This document shows positions 1 to 25,121 of a stretch of DNA of 64,000 nucleotides, one piece after another (positions within the stretch are counted from its first letter, which is position 1; the number at the start of each line of letters is the position of its first letter). The stretch is from the NCBI RefSeq assembly GCF_016903815.1, contig NZ_CP069973.1. The stretch is one strand, 5' to 3'. Source of the stretch: Escherichia coli (lineage in GTDB: Bacteria > Pseudomonadota > Gammaproteobacteria > Enterobacterales > Enterobacteriaceae). Made by a program: the position numbers and the translations under genes. The notes under the pieces were generated by a model that saw nothing but the letters and a program-made list of their open reading frames with translations, was not told the origin of the DNA and did no database searches.

Positions 1-1061
1 AATGGGCAGCGCTGCACGTCTCACGCTGGGGCAATGGACGCGGTCGCTTGCTGTTTACCTGGATTGTCCTGCTCGGTGCTGCCGTTGCAGCTCTGTTTGC
101 CAATGATGGCGCGGCGCTTATTTTGACACCGATTGTCATCGCCATGCTGCTGGCTTTAGGGTTCAGTAAAGGCACGACGCTTGCGTTCGTGATGGCGGCC
201 GGGTTCATTGCCGATACCGCCAGCCTGCCGCTTATTGTCTCCAACCTGGTGAATATCGTTTCCGCAGATTTCTTTGGCCTCGGCTTTCGCGAATATGCCT
301 CGGTGATGGTGCCGGTGGATATCGCCGCGATTGTTGCCACGCTGGTGATGTTGCATCTCTATTTCCGCAAAGATATTCCGCAGAACTACGACATGGCGCT
401 GCTGAAATCTCCCGCAGAAGCGATTAAAGATCCTGCTACGTTCAAAACTGGCTGGGTTGTTTTACTGCTTCTGCTGGTGGGATTTTTCGTTCTGGAACCG
501 CTCGGCATTCCGGTCAGCGCCATTGCGGCAGTGGGCGCGCTGATATTATTTGCCGTCGCTAAACGCGGTCATGCAATTAATACGGGTAAGGTGCTACGCG
601 GTGCGCCCTGGCAGATTGTCATCTTCTCGCTCGGCATGTATCTGGTGGTTTATGGCCTGCGCAATGCCGGACTAACGGAATATCTTTCTGGCGTACTCAA
701 CGTGCTGGCGGAAAACGGCCTGTGGGCCGCGACGCTCGGCACCGGATTCCTCACCGCCTTCCTCTCTTCTATTATGAACAATATGCCGACGGTACTGGTT
801 GGCGCGTTGTCCATTGATGGCAGCACGGCATCTGGCGTTATCAAAGAAGCGATGGTTTATGCCAACGTGATTGGCTGCGATTTGGGGCCGAAAATTACCC
901 CAATTGGTAGCCTGGCTACGCTACTCTGGCTGCACGTTCTTTCGCAGAAGAATATGACTATCAGCTGGGGATATTACTTCCGTACAGGGATTATCATGAC
1001 CCTGCCGGTGCTTTTTGTGACGCTGGCTGCGCTGGCGCTACGTCTCTCTTTCACTTTGTAA
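1..1061 (+). CDS. arsB: Arsenite efflux pump ArsB, C-terminal ~352 codons; 5' end lies upstream of the window
   Basis: Polytopic membrane protein translation in frame to stop at 1061; immediately followed by arsC as in the arsRBC operon. Confidence 0.9.
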
Positions 1062-1073
1062 TGAGATATTGAT

Positions 1074-1499
1074 ATGAGCAACATTACCATTTATCACAAC
1101 CCGGCCTGCGGTACGTCGCGTAATACGCTGGAGATGATCCGCAACAGCGGTACAGAACCGACCATCGTCTATTATCTGGAAACCCCACCGACGCGTGATG
1201 AACTGGTCAAACTCATTGCCGATATGGGGATTTCCGTACGCGCGCTGCTGCGTAAAAACGTCGAGCCGTATGAGGAACTGGGCCTTGCAGAAGATAAATT
1301 TACTGACGATCGGTTAATCGACTTTATGCTTCAGCACCCGATTCTGATTAATCGCCCGATTGTGGTGACGCCGCTGGGAACTCGCCTGTGTCGCCCTTCA
1401 GAAGTGGTGCTGGAAATTCTGCCAGATGCGCAACAAGGCGCGTTCACCAAGGAAGATGGCGAGAAAGTGGTTGATGAAGCGGGTAAACGCTTGAAATAA
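1074..1499 (+). CDS. arsC: Arsenate reductase ArsC (141 aa)
   Basis: 141-aa ORF starting MSNITIYHNPACGTSRNTLEMIR, the glutaredoxin-coupled ArsC family with catalytic Cys in the HNPACGTSR motif; 12 bp after arsB. Confidence 0.95.
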   Translation: MSNITIYHNPACGTSRNTLEMIRNSGTEPTIVYYLETPPTRDELVKLIADMGISVRALLRKNVEPYEELGLAEDKFTDDRLIDFMLQHPILINRPIVVTPLGTRLCRPSEVVLEILPDAQQGAFTKEDGEKVVDEAGKRLK

Positions 1500-1545
1500 A
1501 GCGGCGATATCCACTGCCCATAGTTGGTAAAGTGCGCTTTGTTTA

Positions 1546-1584
1546 TGTCGGATGCGACGCTAACGCGTCTTATCCGACCTACAA
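1546..1584. repeat. REP-like palindromic unit downstream of arsC
   Basis: tgtcggatgcgacgctaacgcgtcttatccgacctaca has the GCCGGATG...CTTATCCGGCCTAC-type REP architecture with imperfect dyad symmetry. Confidence 0.6.
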
Positions 1585-1621
1585 AACCGTGCATGGCATG
1601 AAATCTGTAGCGCGTAGCGCA

Positions 1622-1918
1622 TCAGGCAATTTTGCTATTTACGCAGCACTCCTCGCGTAAGAATTCAATTATCGCTTCCAGCATTGCGTATTGCGAAACA
1701 CACATCAGCGTTCGACTCTCACGGTTTTGTTTGACCAGCCCTACCGATACCAGTGCTGAAATATGGTGACTGAGTGTAGAGCCGGGTATCCCAAGCTGCT
1801 TTTGCAACTCACCGACCGGCAAACCTTGTTCCCCCGCTTTGACCAGGTGTTTGAATATGAACAAACGGGTCGGGTGACCTAGCTCTTTCAGCGCTTTAGC
1901 AACTTCTTCCAACTGCAT
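1622..1918 (-). CDS. ArsR/SmtB-family HTH transcriptional regulator (98 aa) with C-terminal cysteines
   Basis: LGHPTRLFIFKHL...STLSHHISALVSVGLV is the ArsR/SmtB winged-helix signature. No CVC motif in helix 3; cysteines are at LMCVSQ and the C-terminal EECC. Confidence 0.85.
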   Translation of the reverse strand: MQLEEVAKALKELGHPTRLFIFKHLVKAGEQGLPVGELQKQLGIPGSTLSHHISALVSVGLVKQNRESRTLMCVSQYAMLEAIIEFLREECCVNSKIA

Positions 1919-1943
1919 ATGACACCCCCTTTGTCTGGTTGAT

Positions 1944-2002
1944 ATTTCGATAATACCAGAAATATCTTGATCTGAATTTCATTTCGATTATTCTGGAAAT
2001 AT
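1944..2002. promoter_or_regulatory. Candidate operator: two copies of a ~22-bp motif in the divergent regulator/permease intergenic region
   Basis: atttcgataataccagaaatat (1944-1965) and atttcgattattctggaaatat (1981-2002), identical except the central CCAG/CTGG swap, between the two divergent start codons. Confidence 0.4.
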
Positions 2003-2013
2003 AGATTTATTCA

Positions 2014-3027
2014 ATGAGGTTACGTATGAGTAGTTGGCTTGCGATGCTGCAAGATGCCGCAGAGATGTTTGTGTTTCTCGCCGTTGAGCTTTCTTTGCTG
2101 TTTATAGTGATTAGTGCCGGTGTGAGCCTGATAAGACAAAAGGTGCCAGACCATAAAATCCAGCAGATGATGGGGGCCAGAAAAGGGAGAGGTTATCTCC
2201 TGGCTGCTCTGTTGGGAGCCGTTACCCCGTTCTGTAGTTGCTCGACAATACCCATGTTACGTGGATTGTTGTCAGCGAAAGCCGGGTTTGGTCCAACCCT
2301 TACTTTTTTATTTGTTTCACCGCTACTTAATCCCATTATCGTCGGACTAATGTGGGTGACCTTTGGCTGGAAAGTGACCTTGTTGTACGCGATTATCGCC
2401 GCCGGCGTCTCCGTACTTGCCAGTATTATCCTGGATTCTCTGGGATTTGAACGTCATATTATTGCCAGTAAAAGCTCATCAGCAAATTGTTGTGCTCCAG
2501 CCAAAACTTCGCCGGGGACGACATATACGCCAATAAAAGTGAGTTGCTGTAGTCCAGCGGCTAAAGCCATTGAGAAACCTGTAGTAAACTGTTGCAGTAC
2601 CAAAGCTGTGGTAAGTATTAATCCCATAAAACTAGCCACCAAAGATGCGTTGCAACAGTTTAAAGATGTACTGCCATATCTTTTGTTAGGGGTATTAATA
2701 GGCTCTTTTATTTATGGCTTTATTCCCTCAGAGTGGATTGCCGCTCATGCAGGGGCAGATAATCCCTTCGCCATCCCATTGAGCGCCGTTGTCGGTATTC
2801 CGCTATATATCCGGGCAGAGGCGGTTATCCCTCTGGCATCTGTTCTGATGACAAAAGGAATGGCTCTGGGAGCATTAATGGCATTAATCATCGGCAGTGC
2901 CGGCGCAAGCCTGACGGAAGTGATATTACTTAAATCAATGTTCAGAATACCGATGATAGTTGCATTCCTGACGGTTATATTAGGTATGGCTATCTTGATG
3001 GGCTATTTGACTCAAATGCTATTTTAA
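2014..3027 (+). CDS. Putative permease, DUF318/YraQ-ArsP-like, with TPFCSCS motif and a Cys-rich loop (337 aa)
   Basis: Multi-TM hydrophobic protein; AVTPFCSCSTIPMLRGLL matches the conserved ArsP-type motif as I recall it; central loop has three vicinal Cys pairs (NCCAP, SCCSP, NCCST). Confidence 0.8.
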   Translation: MRLRMSSWLAMLQDAAEMFVFLAVELSLLFIVISAGVSLIRQKVPDHKIQQMMGARKGRGYLLAALLGAVTPFCSCSTIPMLRGLLSAKAGFGPTLTFLFVSPLLNPIIVGLMWVTFGWKVTLLYAIIAAGVSVLASIILDSLGFERHIIASKSSSANCCAPAKTSPGTTYTPIKVSCCSPAAKAIEKPVVNCCSTKAVVSINPIKLATKDALQQFKDVLPYLLLGVLIGSFIYGFIPSEWIAAHAGADNPFAIPLSAVVGIPLYIRAEAVIPLASVLMTKGMALGALMALIIGSAGASLTEVILLKSMFRIPMIVAFLTVILGMAILMGYLTQMLF

Positions 3028-3607
3028 ATAGATGCCAGCAGTAAACTATAAGGAGCATTGTGAGTGCCTTATCCTTCTGAGTAGAAAATCATAGATAGGA
3101 TAATCTTTAAAAATCACAAATAACTTAACTAATGCTTTGAGAATGATGACGGATCCGTCAGTAAGTCATCAATCGACAATCACCACGCAATCATGCTTCT
3201 CTGACATTTTATCGGAGAAGCAATGTCTCTTTGTTTCAGTGCTATCCCCCCTTTTAAAGGGCAGATTTCAGTCGCCAATACAACACATTTTTAAATACAC
3301 TTTAACCTGGTTCATTATTACACATCTAAAACATCACAAAAATATCACTTCACACACTATCGGTGAACATCATAACTTTTTAAAATGAGCGCTTTTTGAT
3401 AGTTGTTAACGTTTTCCTTTACGATACTATCACTGCCCTTTTTTTATACACAAATATTACCGGGTGGAGATAAAAGGGAAATCAAAGGTAATTATATCAG
3501 GAAGAGATAACGCATTACATTTATTGTGTGTAGAAGAAAATCCATTCCTGTTCTAATTATCCAATTTAAACATCTTAGCATAAAACAAATGATGAATAAG
3601 GAATTTT

Positions 3608-4831
3608 ATGTCAATTGACTTTACCCCAGGTATAATAAATACATATCACGGCGATATTTATAACTGCACAACAAATACCGATAATGCTAAAACGCCAGAC
3701 ACACCGAAGTGGCCTTGCGATAATTTGGAAGAACAACAACCCATTAATTCCACATTCTCTGGAGAAGGATATACCTCTGATCAATATGATTTAGCGCAAC
3801 ACCAACTTCAACAAATTAATGCGTGCCACACGAACACTACATATACAAATGCAGAATACTCAAAAGTTGTGACTCAACTTGTAAGTCTTATTACTAACAT
3901 TGAAACGATAAGTTCGACACCACTTACGCAACAGACACAATCAATACTTAATCAGATTAATAACATTAGATACGAAAAAAACAAAAGTGCTGAATGTCGA
4001 ATCATTGTTGTCGCTAATCCTAAACCCGACAAGGCAATCATAACTAAAATTAGCGTAGAAGAGGGAATACCAGTAAGATTCAGTGTCCAAACCATGTTTT
4101 CAGATACTAATTTTATTGCTGAACAACGAGCTGACTTACCGACTAATATAAAAGATATTCAAAACCTGTATCAAAAAATGACGAAGTTATATATTGAGCA
4201 CAGTGAAAATAAAAACAGGATGAAAGTCTTTGCCGGAACCAACTTTATTGATTTCAATATGACAGGACAGAACCTGTCCGGGTTCGTTCTAACCTTGTCA
4301 AGGTTTTATTTCGAAGATCTACTTAATATAAATTTCACTGACGCAAATTTAGGTGACACTATTTTTTCACATAAAGAACACCCTGCCCCAAAATTATATA
4401 AAGACGAACAATATCTTGACAAACAAATCGAAGGTTTATTTTCAACATTATTAACCATTAATGACAACTTTTTACGAGCAAAAGCGGAAATTGCTTCGAC
4501 AATAATTAAATTCTTAGAGGCCAGGATAACCAATATTTCATACAATGACATATTAAAATATCAGCAAGAATTCAAAAAACAATGTTATAAGCAAGTTAAA
4601 GCCTTTACGACACTCTCCCGATACAATAAAATTCAAACATGGGCAGAAATGTCTGAATATCAATTCGAAGTATTTCAACGCGAGACGCTTAACCCAAAAA
4701 AAATGTCATGCGCACCTTATTTAAAGAGATCGCTACCTGATGAAAAAACTATAAATTATGGGGTGGAAATAGAAACACCAACTGGCAAAAGAATTCGCTT
4801 ATCAAATCATTACCAGAATATAATCCCATAA
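3608..4831 (+). CDS. Hypothetical AT-rich protein (407 aa) with a pentapeptide-repeat segment; possibly the intact counterpart of the K-12 yhiS pseudogene
   Basis: Long ORF in a markedly AT-rich stretch, no signal peptide. The segment [43 protein letters not shown] forms about nine consecutive pentapeptides with [DN][LFM] periodicity. Position between arsC and slp matches yhiS in K-12. Confidence 0.6.
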
Positions 4832-5794: not shown

Positions 5795-6325
5795 ATGTTT
5801 CTTATAATTACCAGGGATACGATGTTCTTCACTGCGATGAAAAACATTCTGAGTAAAGGTAATGTCGTTCATATACAGAACGAAGAAGAGATCGACGTAA
5901 TGTTGCATCAGCATGCCTTCGTCATTATTGATACATTAATGAATAATGTATTTCATTCTAATTTGCTCACTCAGATTGAACGATTAAAACCTGTCCATGT
6001 GATTATTTTCTCTCCCTTTAATATTAAACGCTGCCTGGGGAAAGTACCGGTGACCTTTGTTCCGCGAACTATCACCATCATCGACTTTGTCGCACTCATC
6101 AATGGCAGTTACTGCTCTGTGCCTGAAGCGGATGTGTCCCTTTCGCGCAAGCAGCATCAGGTTCTGAGCTGCATTGCGAATCAAATGACAACGGAAGATA
6201 TTCTGGAGAAACTGAAAATATCGCTAAAAACGTTCTACTGCCATAAACACAATATCATGATGATCCTCAATCTTAAGCGGATCAATGAGTTGGTACGCCA
6301 TCAGCATATTGATTATCTGGTGTGA
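5795..6325 (+). CDS. dctR: LuxR-family regulator DctR/YhiF (176 aa)
   Basis: 176-aa ORF with C-terminal LuxR-type HTH, directly after slp as in the acid fitness island. Confidence 0.9.
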   Translation: MFLIITRDTMFFTAMKNILSKGNVVHIQNEEEIDVMLHQHAFVIIDTLMNNVFHSNLLTQIERLKPVHVIIFSPFNIKRCLGKVPVTFVPRTITIIDFVALINGSYCSVPEADVSLSRKQHQVLSCIANQMTTEDILEKLKISLKTFYCHKHNIMMILNLKRINELVRHQHIDYLV

Positions 6326-6385
6326 TCGATTGATTAATATAAAGAGGCCCAGCAATAAATAGCCAGACCTCCCTTTAATTATACG

Positions 6386-7414
6386 TTATGCAGTAACGCC
6401 TTCCGGTATCAGCGAAGCAATTTGCTTACGCCATTGCGCTTGCTCCTGTTCGCCTTCTGTACGTTGACCATAAAGTTGCGCTATCTGCGTACCATCATGG
6501 GCAAACAATTCCAGACTGGTCACATAACCGTCACTAGCAGGTTTACGGGTTACCCAGGTTTCAGCAATGCTCTCTTCTAATAGATGAAGAGTAAACGTCG
6601 GGTTAAAAATATTCAGCCAACCTTTCATTGGCACCACTTTTTCTACCACGCCAGTGAAAATCTGTACGCAGCCACGGTTGCCAACAAACACCATGATTTC
6701 ATTGCCATCCTGCTGTGCAGATTCAAGAATTTGCGCCAACGCACTGTTGGATACTTTGCAGGCCAAATCGTCTGCCACCAGATTGAACGCCTGTTGGCGC
6801 GTCAGGTTGTGGCGCTTGAGCAACGTAAAAAACTGATGAACGTCGGTCATCGCCCGCCACTCTTGCTCGACCACACTGGCATCGGCTCGCATTTGAACGA
6901 CTGGCGCATCAACGGCTTTTAACTCAAGCGGCGTATTCTCATCAGTGATAAACCGTGCCAGAAGCTCACTCCATGCCGCCATATCGGTATTGTCGGTGGC
7001 ATAAACTTTTAGTAATGCATCGCCCTGATGATCAAAGAACTGAATACTCTGGCGTTCGCCACGAGTCGTATTTTCTTTAATGTGAAAAACACTGGCCCAT
7101 TGATTGAGAAACAGACGCAAATCCAGCGCGCGTGGATTGAGGATCAATCCGGCATGTCCGTTCAAATGCTGGTTTGTGAACGCACCAACTTGCTCATGGA
7201 CTGCATATTCATTACGGCAAATACATTTGGTCTCGCCAACACTTTCGAGCGCCGCCAGAATTTCACGGATATCGCCGCGCATCCGCCACGCATCGTGCGT
7301 GACGCGTGCAAATGCCAGTTCTGCTTCGCTAATATTCATTAAACCTGCGATGTCACGCGCGTACTTTCCGGGATTTTGTTCTTTTAACTCAAGCCAGCGT
7401 GTGTAGTGGTTCAT
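6386..7414 (-). CDS. chuS: Haem-degrading/haem oxygenase protein ChuS (342 aa)
   Basis: 342-aa ORF recognised as the ChuS/HemS/ShuS family, immediately downstream of chuA on the same strand. Confidence 0.9.
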   Translation of the reverse strand: MNHYTRWLELKEQNPGKYARDIAGLMNISEAELAFARVTHDAWRMRGDIREILAALESVGETKCICRNEYAVHEQVGAFTNQHLNGHAGLILNPRALDLRLFLNQWASVFHIKENTTRGERQSIQFFDHQGDALLKVYATDNTDMAAWSELLARFITDENTPLELKAVDAPVVQMRADASVVEQEWRAMTDVHQFFTLLKRHNLTRQQAFNLVADDLACKVSNSALAQILESAQQDGNEIMVFVGNRGCVQIFTGVVEKVVPMKGWLNIFNPTFTLHLLEESIAETWVTRKPASDGYVTSLELFAHDGTQIAQLYGQRTEGEQEQAQWRKQIASLIPEGVTA

Positions 7415-7462
7415 TGTCTCTCTTCCTTCCAGATAAATGCCCCGAAATATCGGGGCAGATGA

Positions 7463-9445
7463 TTACCATTGATAACTCACGAAAATTTTTCCATTACGAC
7501 CATCCTGTGGGATGCCTTGTGGCGACCAGTACTCTTTGTCGAAAGCGTTACCCAACACCAAAGTAGTGGTCATACCTTTGAGCGCCTGTTGTCCTTGATA
7601 ACTGACGTAGAAATCATTCACGCCATAGCCTGGTTGTTTGCTGTAACTGCTGCTGATATGTGTTGAGCGATCGGCAAACGTACCAACCCACCCAACAGAG
7701 AAGCCACTGTGAGCGATCGGAATATTCAGGGTACTGGTAACGGTATCCGGGTTAATGCTGGAGATATATTCCCCAGTATCGGTGTCTTTGCCGCGGGTAC
7801 GGTTATAGGCCACATCAAGGCTAAACAGATCAGTGGTATATTTCGTCATTACATCCCAGCCCCAGATTTTGGCGTTCGGGACGTTATACGACATAGTTGT
7901 CGCCGCCGCGAAATCGACGGTCGTGGAGATGTAATCCTTCGCTTTGGTATCAAAGTAGCTGGCTTTAAATTCCAGGGTATCATTGGACAACATCAGGTCA
8001 TCAAAACGCAGCCCAAAACCGTACTCCTGAGTTTCGTTAGTTTCCGGACGTAAGTTCGGGTTTGGCACCCAATAGTTGGTATAGAAGCGACCAATCGAGA
8101 AGTGCTTAGAATCGTTATACATTTCGCCCATCGTCGGGGCGCGGAATGCCTGGGCATATGAGCCAAATAACATCAGCCAGTTAGTCGGATTGATAGTCAT
8201 CCCCGCACGAGATGACCATTTGTCGGCATCAACATCTTTGTAACCGTCACTGCTACCGCGATAACTGTCATAGCGGGTTCCGCCAAGCAGGGTAATCGGC
8301 AGATCGCGTAAGGTGATCTCATCCTGTAGCCAGCCGGAGCTAAAATCGATTTTTGCTTGCGGGAAGCCCGTCGTCGCGCCGCCCGGATGTTGTTCCTGAC
8401 GATAATACTCACCGCCATATGTCAGTAAGTGAGAAGCGAAACTGTCGGCAAAGAGAGTGGAACGGTTCTCCAGCCTGGCTCCTTTTGTTATCTGTTCACG
8501 ATACTCGCCGGAACTCCCCGTGTTTTGCGCATTAATACGGACTTCCGACCAGTAAATTTTTGCATCTGCATTTAACCAGTCGTTGCCCTGCGGGGCGAGT
8601 TTATAAGAAAGCTGCGCATCGCGTTGAATTGTTGAACGATCAACCATCGGGTTGCTGCTATCAGAAGCCTCAACAGTCTGCGGATTTTTTGGTTCACGCG
8701 CGTCGTTGTTGTAGTAACGCACTAAACCGCTCAGAGACTGGGCTGAATCAATTTGCCAGGTCCCTTTCGCCAGCATGTTATTAATGGACTCGTCATTCGG
8801 CGCGGTTTCACCATTGCTCTGGCGTAAATCACCCCGACCGCGACTGGACCAGGCCACAATACCATCCAGATTTTCAGTTCGCCCAAACGCGCTCGCGCCT
8901 AATCCCAGGCTATGGTCCCCCGTGCCGCCAGTACCAAAGACACGAAAACCACTGCTTTGTCCTTCCTGCAATAAATCTTTTGCATCGACCGTATCGTAGG
9001 AGATCACTCCACCCAGCGCACCACTGCCATACAGTAATGCTGAAGGTCCGCGAACAATCTCAACACGCTTGATCAGCGCCGGATCGAGAAAAGTGCCATT
9101 CAGGTGTCCGGTATCCGTTCCCTGGCGAACACCATCGACAAGAACCAGCACGCCGCGATGATCATAGCCACGCATATTTACATCCTGACCGTTGGTTCGT
9201 CCGGTACCATCAAGAGTAATTCCAGGAACATGACGCAGCAAATCAGTGGCTGAAGTAGCCGTTTGATTTTCAGGAGCGGAAGTGTCGATGACGCTGACCA
9301 TCATAGGCGCTTCGAAGGAACTACGGGCATTCCCCGTTGCCGTAACGGTCATGGTTTCAGTAGCAAAAGCAAACGTTGGCAAGGTGGCAGAAACAGCCAA
9401 AGCCAACAAACTCAAACGCAACGAGGTAAATTGCGGACGTGACAT
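7463..9445 (-). CDS. chuA: TonB-dependent outer membrane haem/haemoglobin receptor ChuA (660 aa)
   Basis: Signal peptide, TonB-box-like N-terminus (ETMTVTA), plug and beta-barrel, C-terminal aromatic residue (ends ...FVSYQW). Confidence 0.95.
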   Translation of the reverse strand: MSRPQFTSLRLSLLALAVSATLPTFAFATETMTVTATGNARSSFEAPMMVSVIDTSAPENQTATSATDLLRHVPGITLDGTGRTNGQDVNMRGYDHRGVLVLVDGVRQGTDTGHLNGTFLDPALIKRVEIVRGPSALLYGSGALGGVISYDTVDAKDLLQEGQSSGFRVFGTGGTGDHSLGLGASAFGRTENLDGIVAWSSRGRGDLRQSNGETAPNDESINNMLAKGTWQIDSAQSLSGLVRYYNNDAREPKNPQTVEASDSSNPMVDRSTIQRDAQLSYKLAPQGNDWLNADAKIYWSEVRINAQNTGSSGEYREQITKGARLENRSTLFADSFASHLLTYGGEYYRQEQHPGGATTGFPQAKIDFSSGWLQDEITLRDLPITLLGGTRYDSYRGSSDGYKDVDADKWSSRAGMTINPTNWLMLFGSYAQAFRAPTMGEMYNDSKHFSIGRFYTNYWVPNPNLRPETNETQEYGFGLRFDDLMLSNDTLEFKASYFDTKAKDYISTTVDFAAATTMSYNVPNAKIWGWDVMTKYTTDLFSLDVAYNRTRGKDTDTGEYISSINPDTVTSTLNIPIAHSGFSVGWVGTFADRSTHISSSYSKQPGYGVNDFYVSYQGQQALKGMTTTLVLGNAFDKEYWSPQGIPQDGRNGKIFVSYQW

Positions 9446-9734
9446 AGCGATTCTCCATGAGGAAAATAAAAAATGCTGGCTGCCTGGGTTAATACCGGGG
9501 TGGCTGGCGAAAAATAAATTTATTTAAAATTCAGAGCGATAATATTCGCCGGGTGAGTTTACAGGCGTTTATATCCCATGAAATTGCCTGGTATCTCGGC
9601 AAATACGCAAAAGCACGCCCTCTTTGTCAGGCAAAACGATATGCCCCATCAGGAGTGAAGAGCGCTGTGCGTTATCCCTTGCAAATGCTATGGTTTTGTT
9701 ATCCATATGGTCGTGTTTTGTTAAGCGCGAACGT

Positions 9735-9753
9735 GATAATGAGAATTATTATC
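9735..9753. promoter_or_regulatory. Candidate Fur box in the chuA upstream region
   Basis: gataatgagaattattatc matches the 19-bp Fur consensus GATAATGATAATCATTATC at 16 of 19 positions; about 290 bp upstream of the chuA start. Confidence 0.55.
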
Positions 9754-10086
9754 GATCAATTTTTTATGATCAAGCTTTTTTTTAACCGCCATTAACACAA
9801 TAAACAGGGGGTTATGAAACTTATCCTGCGCCCTGTAAACCACTTTGTTTTTATGGTTATTCCCCCATGACCTCATTACTAAACTTTGTCGTTAGCAGTG
9901 ATAATTTTCTCTTCGCTTTGCTCTGCAAGCCTCGATATCTGTGGGTTCTCAGCTTTTTCCCGCGCTGAAATTTAGTCGGTAACAAGAACGTTAGCTGACG
10001 AAGCATCTTGATAAAAATCAAAAATAAATACGCTTGTAACGCCTTGCGTATTGAATCGACGGTTGTATTTCATATATAACTCAAAT

Positions 10087-10105
10087 GATAATAATGATCA
10101 TTCTC
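10087..10105. promoter_or_regulatory. Candidate Fur box upstream of the chuT operon
   Basis: gataataatgatcattctc matches the Fur consensus at about 15 of 19 positions; lies in the chuA-chuT divergent region just 5' of the chuT ATG at 10129. Confidence 0.55.
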
Positions 10106-10128
10106 AATTTGATAAGAGTTCTCATATT

Positions 10129-11043
10129 ATGCCAAGGATCATCACCAGGCCGTTTCTTTTTTCCCCACTAACGTTATGTATTTCAGCCGTGGCCTCTGCC
10201 GCGAAGACCGCGGTAAAACGAAAAAAAATGTTTACGGCAGTACTGGCTCTTAGCTGGGCTTTTAGCGTAACGGCTGCCGAACGTATCGTGGTCGCAGGAG
10301 GATCGCTGACGGAGCTAATCTACGCGATGGGCGCTGGCGAACGCGTGGTTGGTGTCGATGAAACGACATCTTATCCACCAGAAACCGCCAAACTGCCGCA
10401 TATTGGCTACTGGAAACAACTCAACAGCGAAGGCATTTTGTCACTTCGCCCGGATAGCGTAATTACCTGGCAGGATGCCGGGCCACAAATTGTGCTCGAC
10501 CAACTACGAGCGCAGAAAGTCAACGTCGTTACCCTGCCGCGTGTGCCTGCCACCCTTGAGCAGATGTACGCCAACATTCGCCAACTGGCAAAAACGCTAC
10601 AGGTTCCTGAACAAGGCGAGGCGCTGGTGACACAGATCAACCAACGCCTGGAGCGAGTACAGCAAAACGTGGCGGCCAAAAAAGCCCCGGTTAAAGCCAT
10701 GTTTATTCTCTCCGCAGGCGGAAGTGCGCCACAGGTTGCCGGTAAAGGCAGCGTCGCGGACGCCATTCTTTCGCTTGCCGGAGCAGAAAACGTCGCAACC
10801 CACCAGCAGTACAAAAGCTACAGTGCAGAATCACTGATTGCGGCCAATCCAGAAGTGATTGTCGTAACCTCACAAATGGTCGATGGCGATATTAATCGGC
10901 TACGTTCTATTGCCGGAATTACCCACACTGCCGCATGGAAAAACCAGCGCATTATCACCGTTGATCAAAACCTGATTCTGGGAATGGGTCCGCGTATTGC
11001 TGATGTCGTTGAGTCTTTACACCAGCAGCTTTGGCCGCAATAA
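10129..11043 (+). CDS. chuT: Periplasmic haem-binding protein ChuT
   Basis: Class III periplasmic binding protein. The ORF track opens at 10051 with TTG; I chose the first ATG (MPRIITRP...). A later start at 10228 (MFTAVLALSW...) is also possible. Confidence 0.8.
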   Translation: MPRIITRPFLFSPLTLCISAVASAAKTAVKRKKMFTAVLALSWAFSVTAAERIVVAGGSLTELIYAMGAGERVVGVDETTSYPPETAKLPHIGYWKQLNSEGILSLRPDSVITWQDAGPQIVLDQLRAQKVNVVTLPRVPATLEQMYANIRQLAKTLQVPEQGEALVTQINQRLERVQQNVAAKKAPVKAMFILSAGGSAPQVAGKGSVADAILSLAGAENVATHQQYKSYSAESLIAANPEVIVVTSQMVDGDINRLRSIAGITHTAAWKNQRIITVDQNLILGMGPRIADVVESLHQQLWPQ

Positions 11044-11062
11044 ATGGATTTAAATCAGACGA

Positions 11063-12400
11063 ATGAACGCAAATAACACCCTGGATCTCACGCCACATTT
11101 TGCTTTAGACGGTGATCAGCCATTTAAAGACAGGCGCGCCATGATGCCGTTTCGTGGAGCCATTCCGGTTGCCAAAGAGCAACTGGCACAGACCTGGCAA
11201 GAGATGATCAATCAAACGGTATCACCACGTAAGCGACTGGTTTATCTACACATTCCTTTTTGTGCGACACACTGCACGTTTTGTGGTTTTTATCAGAACC
11301 GTTTTAATGAAGATGCGTGTGCTCATTATACCGACGCCCTGATTCGTGAAATAGAAATGGAAGCGGACAGCGTATTGCATCATTCTGCCCCCATCCACGC
11401 GGTCTATTTCGGTGGCGGTACGCCTTCCGCGCTTTCGGCACACGATTTGGCCAGAATCATCACCACATTACGAGAAAAGCTGCCACTGGCCCCTGATTGT
11501 GAAATCACTATCGAAGGCCGGGTACTGAATTTTGACGCTGAGCGAATCGATGCTTGCCTTGATGCAGGAGCAAACCGCTTCTCAATTGGTATTCAGTCGT
11601 TTAACAGCAAAATCCGTAAGAAAATGGCCCGCACCTCGGATGGCCCAACCGCCATTGCGTTTATGGAAAGCCTGGTCAAACGCGACCGTGCTGCGGTGGT
11701 CTGTGATCTGCTGTTTGGCCTGCCGGGTCAGGATGCGCAAACCTGGGGAGAAGATCTGGCTATTGCTCGCGATATCGGTCTCGACGGCGTCGATCTCTAT
11801 GCGCTCAATGTCCTGCCCAATACACCGCTGGGCAAAGCCGTGGAAAATGGGCGCACTACCGTGCCCTCTCCGGCAGAACGTCGCGATCTTTATCTGCAAG
11901 GGTGTGATTTTATGGACGATGACGGTTGGCGCTGCATCAGTAACAGCCACTGGGGCCGTACCACACGCGAACGCAATCTCTATAACCTGCTGATAAAACA
12001 AGGTGCCGATTGTCTGGCCTTTGGTTCCGGAGCCGGCGGTTCGATTAATGGTTACTCCTGGATGAACGAACGCAATCTTCAGACCTGGCATGAATCCGTC
12101 GCGGCAGGCAAAAAACCGCTGATGATGATCATGCGTAACGCCGAACGTGATGCGCAATGGCGTCATACCTTGCAGTCAGGTGTTGAAACAGCGCGTGTAC
12201 CGCTGGATGAACTTACGCCACATGCCGAAAAACTCGCGCCGTTACTGGCTCAATGGCACCAAAAAGGCTTAAGCCGCGATGCGTCAACTTGCCTGCGGCT
12301 GACTAATGAAGGTCGTTTCTGGGCAAGCAATATTTTGCAGTCTCTTAATGAACTAATTCAGGTACTTAATGCGCCAGCGATTGTGCGTGAAAAACCATAA
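11063..12400 (+). CDS. chuW: Radical SAM enzyme ChuW, HemN-like anaerobilin synthase (445 aa)
   Basis: CxxxCxxC radical-SAM motif (FCATHCTFCGFY) in a 445-aa HemN-like protein within the chu operon. Confidence 0.9.
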   Translation: MNANNTLDLTPHFALDGDQPFKDRRAMMPFRGAIPVAKEQLAQTWQEMINQTVSPRKRLVYLHIPFCATHCTFCGFYQNRFNEDACAHYTDALIREIEMEADSVLHHSAPIHAVYFGGGTPSALSAHDLARIITTLREKLPLAPDCEITIEGRVLNFDAERIDACLDAGANRFSIGIQSFNSKIRKKMARTSDGPTAIAFMESLVKRDRAAVVCDLLFGLPGQDAQTWGEDLAIARDIGLDGVDLYALNVLPNTPLGKAVENGRTTVPSPAERRDLYLQGCDFMDDDGWRCISNSHWGRTTRERNLYNLLIKQGADCLAFGSGAGGSINGYSWMNERNLQTWHESVAAGKKPLMMIMRNAERDAQWRHTLQSGVETARVPLDELTPHAEKLAPLLAQWHQKGLSRDASTCLRLTNEGRFWASNILQSLNELIQVLNAPAIVREKP

Positions 12401-12412
12401 CAGGAGTGATTT

Positions 12413-12907
12413 ATGAGCCATGTCTCGTTACAAGAATTTTTGAAAACGGAGCCGGACGGTACGCTGGAGGTGGTAGCCGAACAATACAACACCACACTGC
12501 TGGAAGTAGTGAAAAACCTGCCCTCCTCAACCATAGTGTCAGGCGATAAATTCGATACTGTCTGGGATACCGTCTGCGAATGGGGCAACGTCACCACGTT
12601 AGTACATACTGCCGATGTTATCCTCGAATTTAGCGGCGAACTGCCTTCGGGTTTCCACCGCCACGGCTATTTCAACCTACGCGGAAAGCACGGCATGTCC
12701 GGGCATATCAAAGCAGAAAACTGCACGCATATTGCCTTGATCGAACGTAAATTTATGGGCATGGACACCGCCTCTATTCTCTTTTTCAATAAGAAAGGCA
12801 GCGCCATGCTGAAAATCTTCCTCGGCAGGGATGACCATCGTCAGCTCCTGAGCGAACAAGTCAGCGCCTTCCATGCTCTGGCAGCATCGTTAAAGGAACA
12901 CGCCTGA
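12413..12907 (+). CDS. chuX: Haem utilisation protein ChuX (164 aa)
   Basis: 164-aa ORF in conserved chuWXY order, tightly packed with its neighbours. Confidence 0.85.
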   Translation: MSHVSLQEFLKTEPDGTLEVVAEQYNTTLLEVVKNLPSSTIVSGDKFDTVWDTVCEWGNVTTLVHTADVILEFSGELPSGFHRHGYFNLRGKHGMSGHIKAENCTHIALIERKFMGMDTASILFFNKKGSAMLKIFLGRDDHRQLLSEQVSAFHALAASLKEHA

Positions 12908-13530
12908 TGACACCGTGGCTACTCTTTGGCGCAGGCGGAAAAGGTGTGGGTGCCAGAACGCTTGAACTGGCGCTGGCAGAGCAACGTCCGGTCGTTGCTG
13001 TCGTTCGTCATGCCGATGCCGCCACGAAACTGGCGCAACAAGGCGTACAGTTTTTTACAGGCGACGCCTGTGATGCCAGCGTAGTCGCGGATGCTTGCCG
13101 CGCAGCTGGCCCGGATGCGCTTATCATCTCAACAATGGGCGGAGCTCAGGATTATCTGGCGCACAGAACAGTGATTGATGAGGCCGAAAAGGCCGGCATT
13201 AGTCGCATGATTCTGGTGACCTCTTTGGGATGCGGCGATAGCTGGCCGTTTTTATCGGAGCGAGCAAAGGCTGCGTTTGGTCAGGCGGTACGGGAAAAAA
13301 CGCTGGCGGAAAGCTGGTTGCAAACCAGCCAGCTTGATTACGCCATTCTCCGCCCTGGCGGTCTGCTTGATGGGGCGGCAACGGGCAAAGCACAACGGAT
13401 ACAAAATCAGGAGTGTCATGGTTTTGTTAACCGTGCCGATGTCGCCGCACATATCCATGAACTGGCAAATGCGCCAGCACTTAACCAGCAGGTCTACAGT
13501 CTGATTGAACCGGACCTGAAACCGGCGTGA
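12907..13530 (+). CDS. chuY: NAD(P)-binding reductase ChuY (207 aa)
   Basis: N-terminal Rossmann-like GxxGxxG (LLFGAGGKGVGA); start overlaps the chuX stop. Confidence 0.85.
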   Translation: MTPWLLFGAGGKGVGARTLELALAEQRPVVAVVRHADAATKLAQQGVQFFTGDACDASVVADACRAAGPDALIISTMGGAQDYLAHRTVIDEAEKAGISRMILVTSLGCGDSWPFLSERAKAAFGQAVREKTLAESWLQTSQLDYAILRPGGLLDGAATGKAQRIQNQECHGFVNRADVAAHIHELANAPALNQQVYSLIEPDLKPA

Positions 13531-13578
13531 TCCCCCGGCGCGGAATCTCCGCGCCGTAATGTCGTAACGGAGTTTTGC

Positions 13579-14571
13579 GTGCTCAAGGATTCACTCTCTT
13601 CCGCCAGGGTCTTTATGGGGCTATCACTATTATTGCTCGCTCTGGTGCTGTTCGGTGCCAGTCAGGGAGCGTTAAAGATCAGTTTTGATGCTCTTTTTGA
13701 TGAGGAATACCGCGATATCTGGCTCAATATTCGTCTACCACGGGTTTTGCTGGCGGTGCTGGTAGGTGCAGCGTTGGCAACCGCAGGGGTAATTATGCAG
13801 GGGCTTTTTCGCAACCCAATGGCTGACCCAGGATTACTTGGCGTCAGTAGCGGTTCTGCATTAATGGTTGGCGTTGCTATTGTGCTACCGTTCTCCTTCC
13901 CAGTGGTGCTGGTGCTCTATGAGCAAATGGTGTTTGCCATTGCCGGAAGTTTAGTGGTCTGCACCATCATTTTTCTCATCACGCAGCGCCATCGCGATGG
14001 CAGCATGATGCAATTATTACTCGCCGGTATCGCCATCAATGCCCTGTGCGGCGCAGCGATCGGCATCCTGAGCTATATCGGCGATGAGCAGCAGCTACGA
14101 CAACTCACATTGTGGATGATGGGCAATCTTGGACAGGCGCAATGGCCGACGTTATTGGTTGCCAGTTCATTCATCCTACCGGCCATTATCGCAACAACTT
14201 GTCTCGCCGGAACGCTGAATTTACTGCAGCTCGGTGATGAAGAAGCCCACTACCTCGGCGTGAACGTTAAGCGTAAACGCCAGCAATTACTGTTAGTGAG
14301 CTCACTGCTCGTTGGTGCCGCCGTATCGGTAAGCGGCATTATCGGCTTTATTGGCCTGGTGATCCCGCATCTGATTCGTATGACTACCGGGGCAAATCAC
14401 CGCTGGCTAATCCCTTGCTCCGCCCTCGCCGGAGCCTGTTTATTGCTGATGGCAGACACGCTTGCCCGCACGCTGGTACAGCCAGCAGAAATGCCCGTGG
14501 GATTATTAACCAGCCTGCTTGGTGGCCCTTATTTTATGTGGTTGATTCTGCGCAACCGGAGGATCACATGA
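13579..14571 (+). CDS. chuU: Haem ABC transporter permease ChuU (330 aa)
   Basis: FecCD-family polytopic permease; start codon appears non-ATG in the ORF track. Confidence 0.85.
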
Positions 14572-15338
14572 TCAGCGCCCAGAATCTGGTTTATAGCCTT
14601 CAGGGGCGGCGTCTGACTGATAATGTCTCGCTGACTTTTCCCGGTGGGGAAATCGTTGCCATTCTCGGCCCTAATGGTGCGGGAAAATCTACGCTGCTTC
14701 GCCAGTTAACCGGCTATCTTCAACCTGATAGCGGCGAATGTCGGTTGTTTAATAAGCCATTAAATGAATGGTCGATTACTGAACTGGCGAAACACCGGGC
14801 CGTGATGCGTCAAAATAGCCACATGGCGTTTCCATTCAGCGTACAAGAAGTTATCCAGATGGGGCGGCATCCGCATCGCACTGGTAATCAGGATAATGAA
14901 ACAGCACAAATAATGGCGTTATGTGACTGTCAGGCGTTAGCAAACCGCGACTATCGGCAATTATCCGGTGGTGAACAACAGCGCGTGCAATTAGCGCGCC
15001 TGCTGGTGCAACTCTGGGAACCTACTCCCTCACCGAAATGGTTATTTCTTGATGAACCAACTTCGGCGCTGGATATTCACCATCAGCAGCACTTGTTTCG
15101 TTTATTACGCCAGCTAGTTCACGAACGGCAGTTCAATGTTTGCTGCGTATTGCACGATCTAAATCTTGCCGCGCGTTATGCAGACCGTGTTGTATTAATG
15201 CAAAAAGGAAAGGTTATCGCAAATGGTAAACCACAGGACGTATTGACACAGCAGGCGCTGACCATGCTTTACGGCGCGGATATTACCGTACTTAAAGATC
15301 CTGCCAGCCATTCCCCCCTGATCGTCCTCGATCATTAA
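14568..15338 (+). CDS. chuV: Haem ABC transporter ATPase ChuV (256 aa)
   Basis: Walker [13 protein letters not shown] signature LSGGEQQR, Walker B LFLDEP. Start taken at [10 protein letters not shown] with ATGA overlap to chuU; the ORF-track start at 14415 is an in-frame extension inside chuU. Confidence 0.9.
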
Positions 15339-15344
15339 AACCAA

Positions 15345-15369
15345 CAGGAGTACCGCTCTGGTACTCCTG
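15345..15369. terminator. Hairpin between convergent chuV and yhiD
   Basis: caggagtacc-gctct-ggtactcctg, a perfect 10-bp stem with 5-nt loop, in the 51-bp gap between the two convergent stop codons. Confidence 0.55.
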
Positions 15370-15389
15370 TGAATAAATAACTATAAAGA

Positions 15390-16037
15390 TTAGCTAATTG
15401 AAACGCCTTTCACCCCTGCCATACCTTTTAATAATCGCAACAGGTCTTCTATCGACGTTGTGGCATGAAGCTGGATATCAATGGCGACCACTTCATGATC
15501 TTCATTTTCCTGCAACGAAACTAAATCAGTTTTTATTTTTTGCTGCTTAAACCAGTCGAGCATTGATACCGTATTACCGTTCACTAATGTCAGCTGTAAA
15601 TGGTAATTTTTGTTCATCAGGCGGAAGGTTAATTGATGGAAGACTTCCAGCACCAGCAAGGTCATCACTGAACCATAAATGCCCAGTTCGTACATACCAC
15701 TGCCAATAACCATACCTATAGCGGCGGTCACCCAGATATCCGCTGCCGTCGTCAGACCTACAATATTTTGGTTACGAACGAGAATGTTACCTGCGCCGAT
15801 AAACCCGACGCCCGTCACCACCTGAGCAGCAATACGGCTGGGGTCCAGTCCGACGTGATCTAAAGACAGCACGTCAGCAAAACCATATTTCGAAACAATC
15901 ATAAACAGGGCGCTTCCCATGCCAATTAATACATGTGTGCGTAACCCTGCTCCTTTGCCGCGCATTTGCCTTTCCATGCCAATAGCGCCACAGGCAATTG
16001 CTGCGAGTATAAGACGTATAATAAATTCTGCTGTCAT
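15390..16037 (-). CDS. yhiD: MgtC-family inner membrane protein YhiD (215 aa)
   Basis: MTAEFIIRLILAAIACGAIGMERQ MgtC/SapB-type N-terminus; synteny with hdeB. Confidence 0.9.
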   Translation of the reverse strand: MTAEFIIRLILAAIACGAIGMERQMRGKGAGLRTHVLIGMGSALFMIVSKYGFADVLSLDHVGLDPSRIAAQVVTGVGFIGAGNILVRNQNIVGLTTAADIWVTAAIGMVIGSGMYELGIYGSVMTLLVLEVFHQLTFRLMNKNYHLQLTLVNGNTVSMLDWFKQQKIKTDLVSLQENEDHEVVAIDIQLHATTSIEDLLRLLKGMAGVKGVSIS

Positions 16038-16100
16038 ATAAAAATGCAAAAAGGAGCAGCAAGATGGCTCAACTTGCTACTCCTTTTTACTTGTACCTCA

Positions 16101-19028: not shown

Positions 19029-19366
19029 TCAGGACATAAGCAACTGAAATTGATGGCTGGCATGACGAGGGATGCAGATGCTGATTTCATTACCCCCGGT
19101 GATTACTAAAGGAGAGGCGAAAACGACTTTATTCCCCTGGTATATGTATCCACCAGTAGAACCCTTCGTTGCCCGAATGCTGGCAGGAACTGTTGGCAGA
19201 ACGGCAACATTTTTTTTGTCGTTGACCTCACCATGTCGATCACTATGCCTGTATCCCACCTTACTGGCTGACAACCCCACTATGCCGCTGGTCTGTAAAT
19301 CCCTCATATCTCTCCTCGCGCGCAATTTAAAGAACCGTTATTTCTCAAGAATTTTCAGGGACTAAA

Positions 19367-24753: not shown

Positions 24754-24999
24754 GACTATCCCTTATATTTCATTACTGCGATTATTTCAATTTCAGTATA
24801 CTAATGAAATGATGCCAGACTGTTTCTTAGCGCAAAAACTGCCAGATTTGGTAGGACCAAAATTTATCCACAAAGTAGTTTTGCATAACAGTTAATTGAT
24901 AATAAGTAAATGCAGCACGAATATATTTTCGCACAGCGTATAGCTTATGTTTATAAAAAAATGGCTGATCTTATTTCCAGTAAAAGTTATATTTAACTT

Positions 25000-25104
25000 A
25001 CTGAGAGCACAAAGTTTCCCGTGCCAACAGGGAGTGTTATAACGGTTTATTAGTCTGGAGACGGCAGACTATCCTCTTCCCGGTCCCCTATGCCGGGTTT
25101 TTTT
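25000..25104 (+). ncRNA. gadY: Small RNA GadY, antisense to the gadX 3' end
   Basis: 105-nt stretch beginning actgagagcacaaagtttccc and ending in the hairpin cccgg...ccggg plus T-run, matching the GadY sequence as I recall it; lies on the opposite strand just 3' of gadX. Confidence 0.7.
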
Positions 25105-25121
25105 TATGTCTGAGTAAAACT

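Follow-up and report, generated by a model that had tools for sequence, protein, structure and literature searches.

An intact chu haem-uptake locus between dctR and yhiD in the acid fitness island of an Escherichia coli genome

The 64,000-nucleotide stretch of Escherichia coli DNA analysed here in full (contig NZ_CP069973.1, hereafter called the window) almost certainly carries an intact chu (= shu) haem-uptake locus, equivalent to O-island 140 of O157:H7 and found at its usual place in the acid fitness island, where dctR (yhiF) and yhiD flank it. The block occupies positions 6326 to 15386 (9061 bp), in which the minus strand encodes chuS-chuA and the plus strand chuT-W-X-Y-U-V, as judged from the listing of open reading frames (ORFs) and from the RefSeq annotation of an identical genome, that of E. 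coli strain 7/2 (NZ_CP023820.1:3936964-4000963, 0 mismatches in 64,000 positions). A previous inspection of the letters, made without database searches and referred to here as the sequence-only reading, had described a block of about 9 kb with chuS-chuA divergent from chuTWXYUV, joined to its surroundings by 60 bp on the left and 51 bp on the right and lacking from K-12. This description proved accurate: eight ORFs lie in that order, both junction lengths are exact (6326-6385 and 15339-15389), and a blastn comparison with K-12 MG1655 finds 38 bp in place of the 9061 bp. All eight ORFs align to Chu or Shu proteins, and the K-12 site is without the block. The literature likewise places O-island 140 between yhiF and yhiD, and a haem locus inside the acid fitness island has been reported for O157:H7 and E. 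albertii (PMC5799925). Nothing that we found counts against the identification, in which function is read from sequence.

Searches by ORF and by hidden Markov model (HMM) assign every ORF in the block to a chu gene. All eight are full length and free of internal stops, and their lengths equal those of the corresponding genes in CFT073 and O157:H7; for these reasons we regard the island as complete. Gene names follow the PGAP/RefSeq annotation of the strain 7/2 chromosome, in which several carry the names shuT/shuU. Each of the eight products matches a curated family or a solved Chu/Shu structure (Table 1), and the details agree with the assignments. Residues 29-660 of ChuA match PDB 9dhe and the ShuA structure 3fhh (E=0), and ChuS contains two HutX-like stretches under the RefSeq name ‘hematinate-forming heme oxygenase ChuS’. 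The radical-SAM motif CxxxCxxC is found at residues 67-74 of ChuW, and ChuV, whose start overlaps the chuU stop by 4 bp, has the Walker A sequence GPNGAGKS at 34-41 and LSGGEQ at 132. ChuY gave no match among the NCBIfam HMMs. ChuU falls below the cut-offs of the BtuC/Fec equivalog models and is 100% identical to WP_000910402.1 (‘heme ABC transporter permease ShuU/ChuU’), which is the same protein as in CFT073. Taken together, the locus has every sequence-level feature that defines the chu/shu family.

The start of chuT can be drawn in more than one way. The longest ORF begins with a TTG at 10051, a start that we reject: it would enclose a Fur box, and the published shuT start site fits the ATG at 10129. 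The first 33 codons from that ATG (window 10129-10230) evolve rapidly between species. In other Escherichia, chuT is nine bases longer, and these bases supply a further in-frame start (MKKLFTAV...) directly ahead of the core of the signal peptide. E. coli alleles lack this second start and would have either a 48-residue leader from the ATG at 10129 or an uncharged start at M34.

The chuA and chuT genes diverge from a 683-bp spacer, and the regulatory anatomy predicted for this spacer is the published one, with its putative elements intact. A FourU RNA thermometer is predicted over the chuA Shine-Dalgarno sequence, in a hairpin that pairs AUUUUCC with the GGAGAAU ribosome-binding site (-8.2 kcal/mol, z=-1.9); the element is 100% conserved in four Escherichia species, and the function of the shuA/chuA thermometer has been shown experimentally (PMC3660397). 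The 5' untranslated region (UTR) of chuA has been mapped at 291 nt in O157:H7 Sakai (PMC9002310), and by homology the chuA transcript of the window would start at about 9736. Two predicted Fur boxes lie in the spacer and are the only matches in the 64 kb, where 0.01 would be expected. The second of these begins at 10087, in agreement with the published transcription start of shuT, which lies 42 nt upstream of the start codon (10129-42=10087) with a functional Fur site just downstream (PMC5458455). When the region is aligned with that of three other Escherichia species, both Fur boxes and the thermometer are invariant across all four, and the remaining intergenic sequence drifts. The chuT 5' UTR is also predicted to form a thermometer hairpin, but its fold is weak (-5.8 kcal/mol, z=-0.3). 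Other candidates in the region did not hold up. An 18-codon ORF of the spacer (9814-9870), with a G-rich motif upstream, was rejected as a gene, its start codon being lost in the three other species, and Rfam matches to mir-761, ceN63 and Hammerhead_HH9 lie below the gathering score (E 0.4-0.7) and are taken as chance.

Established work on chu and shu provides a working model, which we infer for this locus. Under iron scarcity, Fur would leave its two operators and permit transcription of chuAS leftward and of chuTWXYUV rightward. Translation of chuA would be gated by the FourU thermometer, with the ribosome-binding site freed at 37 C, and the long chuA 5' UTR may also receive small RNA (sRNA) and Rho inputs that exert control once transcription has begun (PMC9002310). 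ChuA together with TonB would bring haem across the outer membrane, ChuT would hand it to the ChuUV ABC importer, and ChuX would hold or carry it in the cytoplasm. There, ChuS is expected to degrade haem when oxygen is present, and under anaerobiosis ChuW, a radical SAM enzyme, would open the ring and free the iron, with ChuY reducing the product anaerobilin. The locus is thus described as a complete and apparently functional system for acquiring iron from haem. We consider it very improbable that it is instead a non-functional, decaying island in this strain. Such a view could draw on other operons of the window that look degraded, namely a stop at codon 120 of bcsQ and a bcsC that is 390 bp shorter than in K-12, and on genomes in which chu genes are disrupted or interrupted by insertions (H37 and H1/H2, respectively). 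Opposed to it are eight full-length ORFs without internal stops, catalytic and ATP-binding motifs that are in place, and regulatory elements that appear intact.

How the block came to occupy this site is a separate matter, and our reading of it is weaker than the identification, drawn as it is from few loci. Tentatively, and with slightly less than even confidence, we propose that the dctR-yhiD interval exists as two old alleles, one with a spacer of about 40 bp and one with the 9-kb chu block, each present in E. coli and in other Escherichia, and that chu-negative E. coli of groups A, B1 and C have, instead of a deletion scar, the original empty allele, which they either kept or got back through homologous recombination. 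In K-12 MG1655 the order is dctR, a 41-bp spacer and yhiD. When the window is aligned by blastn with 50 kb of K-12, similarity stops at 6325 and restarts at 15387, leaving 9061 bp opposite 38 unalignable bp. Because the K-12 spacer and the occupied allele have only the final 3-5 bases ahead of the yhiD stop in common, the difference is a replacement of a short spacer rather than a clean insertion. The sequence-only reading had spoken of a block ‘inserted’ at this site; the word is fair relative to K-12, but a spacer was replaced, and the event appears to be old, with the same junctions in phylogroups B2, D and E and in other Escherichia.

The same reading had reported no flanking repeats, tRNA or integrase, and here too we agree. 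ARAGORN finds no tRNA or tmRNA gene in the 64-kb window, no direct or inverted repeats bracket 6326 and 15386 beyond short matches at chance level, and the annotation of the matching 64 kb of strain 7/2 contains neither an integrase nor a transposase. A search for carriage on plasmids produced no real copy, the two matches labelled ‘plasmid’ being 4.9-Mb records that are evidently mislabelled chromosomes. The block therefore lacks every feature that defines an integrase-type mobile island.

The block occurs in 2234 of the 5426 complete E. coli genomes, with presence defined as at least 80% of an 11-kb query being held. Essentially all of the remaining genomes, including K-12 and O104:H4, have the flanks only, and intermediate forms appear to be rare in the sampled ranking. 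In a few genomes (H1, H2 and H37) the island is either longer by 711-777 bp, in two pieces that are probably an insertion sequence, or has a disrupted permease gene, indicating occasional decay of chu. Genomes with the block include CFT073, O157:H7 and a strain of sequence type 405 (ST405) in phylogroup D. CFT073 belongs to phylogroup B2, O157:H7 to E and K-12 to A; besides B2, D, E and F, the groups positive for chuA are G and cryptic clade I. The earlier placement of the strain in a chu-positive lineage therefore holds for the genomes sampled: its chuA is intact, and the block is present in B2, E and D and absent from K-12 and O104:H4. The Clermont markers arpA, yjaA and TspE4.C2 lie outside the window, such that the phylogroup cannot be typed from the window alone. 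However, because the 11-kb interval is 100.0% identical by megablast to that of many genomes, among them WCHEC96200, a published ST405, phylogroup D strain (PMC5762679), the source strain is, on this indirect evidence, most likely also ST405/phylogroup D.

A scan of genome contigs with DctR yielded six Escherichia loci, which were mapped by tblastn, and E. fergusonii was considered in addition. The scan missed E. coli's own representative and, as named records, E. marmotae and E. ruysiae, so that species are thinly sampled. Two divergent species representatives labelled ‘E. coli’ (L003 and L006) have the full island between dctR and yhiD. The full block is also present in E. albertii NBRC 107761, where yhiD is missing; in that genome (L007, 19560-19630) a hairpin comes immediately after the chuV stop, the same one that separates yhiD from hdeB in E. 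coli (window 16048-16088). Escherichia sp. MOD1-EC7003 (L004) has chuS-chuA only, with chuTWXYUV replaced by a palindromic element resembling an enterobacterial repetitive intergenic consensus (ERIC). Two such elements in inverted orientation are found at 13640-14310 of that contig, one in the chuA 5' UTR and one at the very point of the deletion, adjoining the yhiD stop; they are recognisable by the ERIC1R/ERIC2 primer sequences. The site is empty in Escherichia sp. E1V33 and in E. whittamii.

Occupied junctions are shared by B2, D and E strains and by L003, L004 and L006. Specifically, the left spacer is kept in CFT073 (56 bp), O157:H7 (60 bp) and these three loci, with its core also in E. 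albertii, and the right spacer is kept in CFT073, O157:H7, L003 and L006. The hairpin of the right spacer (15344-15370), which lies downstream of yhiD, resembles a terminator for the minus strand. Between the window and E. albertii, nucleotide identity is 87-92% for the chu genes and 84-93% for slp, dctR, hdeB and hdeA in the flanks. Because the junctions are conserved across species and the chu genes have diverged as much as their flanks, we conclude that the block already occupied this site when these species diverged, which excludes a recent transfer. It could be argued that this strain's lineage acquired the block recently on a mobile element that has since decayed, given its framing as an island, its absence from K-12 and its patchy distribution in E. 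coli (2234/5426). We regard this possibility as effectively refuted by the identical junctions in B2, D, E and other Escherichia species, by a between-species divergence equal to that of the flanks, and by the lack of tRNA, integrase, repeats and plasmid copies.

The empty sites provide the other half of the argument. Aligned from the right without gaps, the spacers of K-12, E1V33 and E. whittamii match at 26 of 41 positions (P=1e-5), whereas the K-12 spacer agrees with the occupied junctions at no more than 16 of 41 (P=0.14), and no similarity was found between it and the left spacer of the window. We also considered, and rejected, the K-12 spacer as a remnant of the island or of its junctions, given that blastn-short finds only chance 8-11-mers for it in the island or window. 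E. fergusonii has a non-syntenic and divergent acid fitness island (DctR is 63% identical) in which dctR is followed by 73 bp and yhiD, with no chu, in agreement with the description given with xenoGI (PMC5799925). The GC content is 0.503 in the block and 0.37 and 0.40 in the adjacent island DNA. Because the empty spacers are homologous to one another, dctR adjoins yhiD in E. fergusonii, and GC content steps at the junctions, the data appear to favour a single old insertion that some lineages later lost through allele replacement, over fresh deletion. On this view the block would have arrived only once, earlier than the split of E. coli from E. albertii and in an acid fitness island that already existed, replacing a spacer of about 40 bp; occupied and empty alleles would then have coexisted in the genus, with no mobility genes remaining, and what chu-negative lineages such as K-12 have would be the old empty allele and not the scar of a fresh deletion. 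Within E. coli, a K-12-like absence is more likely to reflect secondary loss or allele replacement than a primitive state.

An alternative is that chu and the acid fitness island arrived as one block, such that the occupied state is primitive and every empty site (K-12, E. whittamii, E1V33 and E. fergusonii) is a deletion derivative. The xenoGI authors raised joint arrival as a possibility, and noted that either insertion followed by clean deletion or transfer with gene conversion would be required (PMC5799925). In favour of joint arrival, the block is present in E. albertii, which is an outgroup to E. coli, and deletions in the island do occur, as illustrated by the loss of chuTWXYUV in MOD1-EC7003 and of yhiD in E. 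albertii. However, independent deletions would not give empty spacers that share homology among themselves but none with either occupied junction. The sharp step in GC at both junctions (0.50 versus 0.37-0.40) and the adjacency of dctR and yhiD in the very divergent island of E. fergusonii also speak against it, and we judge joint arrival, including the version in which a single ancient deletion followed, to be unlikely, although less so than the recent acquisition or decay discussed above.

Several points nevertheless weaken the case for a single old insertion followed by allele replacement. The GC content of the block, about 50%, is the E. coli average, and the contrast, which is owed to the low-GC flanks as much as to the block, could reflect a low-GC foreign acid fitness island rather than anything about chu. 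The spacer of E. fergusonii has diverged beyond alignment, and therefore supports adjacency of the genes and not homology of the spacers. No recombination tract is visible at the K-12 empty site, where flank identity is 96.6% (left) and 99.0-99.4% (right), with a background of about 98%; this divergence is unremarkable, and a recent import around the site is unsupported. Finally, the comparison covers only seven non-coli or divergent Escherichia loci. Overall, the data point to an old polymorphism of two alleles over repeated gain or deletion.

Table 1. Features of the chu block and its flanks in the window (coordinates are window positions)
Feature	Coordinates	Strand	Evidence
dctR (yhiF), left flank, acid fitness island gene	5795-6325	+	RefSeq annotation of identical genome; 98% amino acid identity to K-12 DctR
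Left junction spacer, 60 bp, dctR stop to chuS stop	6326-6385		GC-rich palindromic core GAGGCCC...GACCTCC
chuS, cytoplasmic haem-degrading protein/haem oxygenase, two HemS/ChuX-like halves	6386-7414	-	PDB 4cdp/1u9t, E=1e-227 over 1-342
chuA, TonB-dependent outer-membrane haem/haemoglobin receptor	7463-9445	-	TIGR01785, 588.8 bits (cut-off 316.85)
FourU RNA thermometer (predicted) over chuA Shine-Dalgarno sequence	9443-9474	-	Rfam RF02597 shuA_thermo, 60.1 bits (gathering score 58)
chuA 5' UTR (putative), about 291 nt	9446-9736	-	By homology; -35/-10 match at 9773-9745
Fur box 1 (predicted), overlapping chuA -10 and transcription start	9735-9753		17/19 matches to GATAATGATAATCATTATC; invariant in four species
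Fur box 2 (predicted), at start of 42-nt chuT/shuT 5' UTR	10087-10105		16/19 matches to consensus; region conserved
chuT/shuT, periplasmic haem-binding protein	10129-11043	+	PDB ShuT 2r7a, E=4e-162, residues 49-304; RefSeq name ShuT
chuW/hutW, radical SAM methyltransferase opening haem anaerobically	11063-12400	+	TIGR04107, 568.9 bits (cut-off 400)
chuX/hutX, cytoplasmic haem carrier	12413-12907	+	TIGR04108, 208.6 bits (cut-off 110); PDB ChuX 2ovi, E=4.5e-107
chuY, anaerobilin reductase	12907-13530	+	PDB ChuY 5guy, E=4.7e-133; RefSeq ‘anaerobilin reductase’
chuU/shuU, haem ABC transporter permease	13579-14571	+	FecCD/BtuC-type permease matches
chuV, haem ABC transporter ATPase	14568-15338	+	NF010068, 396.8 bits (cut-off 261)
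Right junction spacer, 51 bp	15339-15389		Perfect hairpin 15344-15370, 11-bp stem
yhiD, right flank, acid fitness island gene, MgtC family	15390-16037	-	NF007431, 401.7 bits (cut-off 214); 100% amino acid identity to K-12 YhiD

Elsewhere in the window, a second insertion or deletion relative to K-12 (1692-3298) holds an ArsR/SmtB-family regulator (1622-1918, minus strand) and a permease (2026-3027). This block lies between arsC and a yhiS-like gene, where K-12 has about 105 bp, and is present in 2224 of the 5426 complete E. coli genomes, nearly the same number as carry chu. The neighbouring arsBC genes are unusually diverged from K-12 (93.9% identity over window 1-1691, and 92.3% in 1001-1691). 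The yhiS-like gene itself (3608-4831, GC 32-35%) is an intact hypothetical gene of 407 amino acids whose K-12 counterpart is the yhiS pseudogene split by IS5; its left half is about 98% identical to K-12 and its right half 93%. Farther along, the cellulose operon looks degraded. The stop in bcsQ (54942-55694, minus strand) is in a gene annotated as an intact coding sequence in K-12, and bcsC (45799-48882, minus strand) measures 3084 bp against 3474 bp in K-12, a difference that is in frame.

Some small elements also occur in the window. Three tandem genes for Ldr-family type I toxins lie on the minus strand between bcsG and yhjV (59688-60876), each with an rdlD antitoxin RNA (Rfam RF01813, 82-87 bits). 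The GadY sRNA is found between gadW and gadX (24997-25110, plus strand, 150 bits), and the ES205 sRNA (19146-19217, plus strand, 105 bits) is antisense to a 279-bp hypothetical ORF between gadE and mdtE. Outside the window, two metagenome contigs (L015, 8001-8531; L016, 2596-3126) encode a DctR homologue, a LuxR-type regulator with 52% identity, that adjoins a urease operon (ureDABCEFG) and urea and ammonium transporters. These take the place of acid fitness island genes, and the LuxR-type regulator stands beside a different acid-resistance system.

Given that the chu locus, its biochemistry, its regulation and its place in the acid fitness island are already published, and that chuA is a routine phylotyping marker, the finding itself is an ordinary one, which places the strain among the chuA-positive and often extraintestinal or enteropathogenic lineages. 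At the level of population genetics, presence and absence alleles at one site are shared across Escherichia species. Our small addition is that both the occupied and the empty alleles occur across the genus, and that the empty spacers are homologous to one another and not to the island junctions. If true, the two-allele reading would answer the question of a puzzling distribution and clean deletion left by Wyckoff et al. 1998 and by the xenoGI paper, although the point is a modest one.

The closest known systems are the chu loci of O157:H7 (O-island 140) and CFT073, which have the same eight genes in the same order and lengths, the same dctR/yhiF-yhiD site and the same junction spacers (left 60/56 bp, right 51 bp). 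Over the 11-kb interval, identity is 97.8% to O157:H7 and 96.8% to CFT073, and the differences are allelic only; unlike those two, the present copy is a phylogroup D/ST405-type allele, as in WCHEC96200. The shu locus of Shigella dysenteriae (shuS-shuA and shuTWXYUV) is orthologous, as seen in the matches to ShuA (3fhh, E=0) and ShuT (2r7a, 4e-162), the thermometer family and the fit to the geometry of the shuT start and Fur site. It differs in host lineage, and its likeness was judged from structures and families. The shu/chu locus and its odd distribution were described by Wyckoff et al. 1998, as cited in PMC5799925.

More distant relatives are the hem/hmu system of Yersinia (hemRSTUV), with matches to HemS (2j0r, E=9e-151) and HmuT (3md9, E=1e-43), and the hut system of Vibrio (hutWXZ), with the HutW and HutX families (TIGR04107 and TIGR04108). 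These differ from chu in gene content, order and chromosomal context, for example in having no chuY, or hutZ in place of chuS, and are relatives at another locus. Finally, the block resembles tRNA-associated pathogenicity islands, such as the locus of enterocyte effacement (LEE) at selC, in being strain-variable, associated with virulence and unlike its immediate flanks in composition. Unlike islands of the LEE type, it has no tRNA target, integrase, direct repeats or mobility genes, it is only 9 kb in length, and its GC content equals the genome average. The chu block is not a mobile island but an indel polymorphism that is fixed and old.

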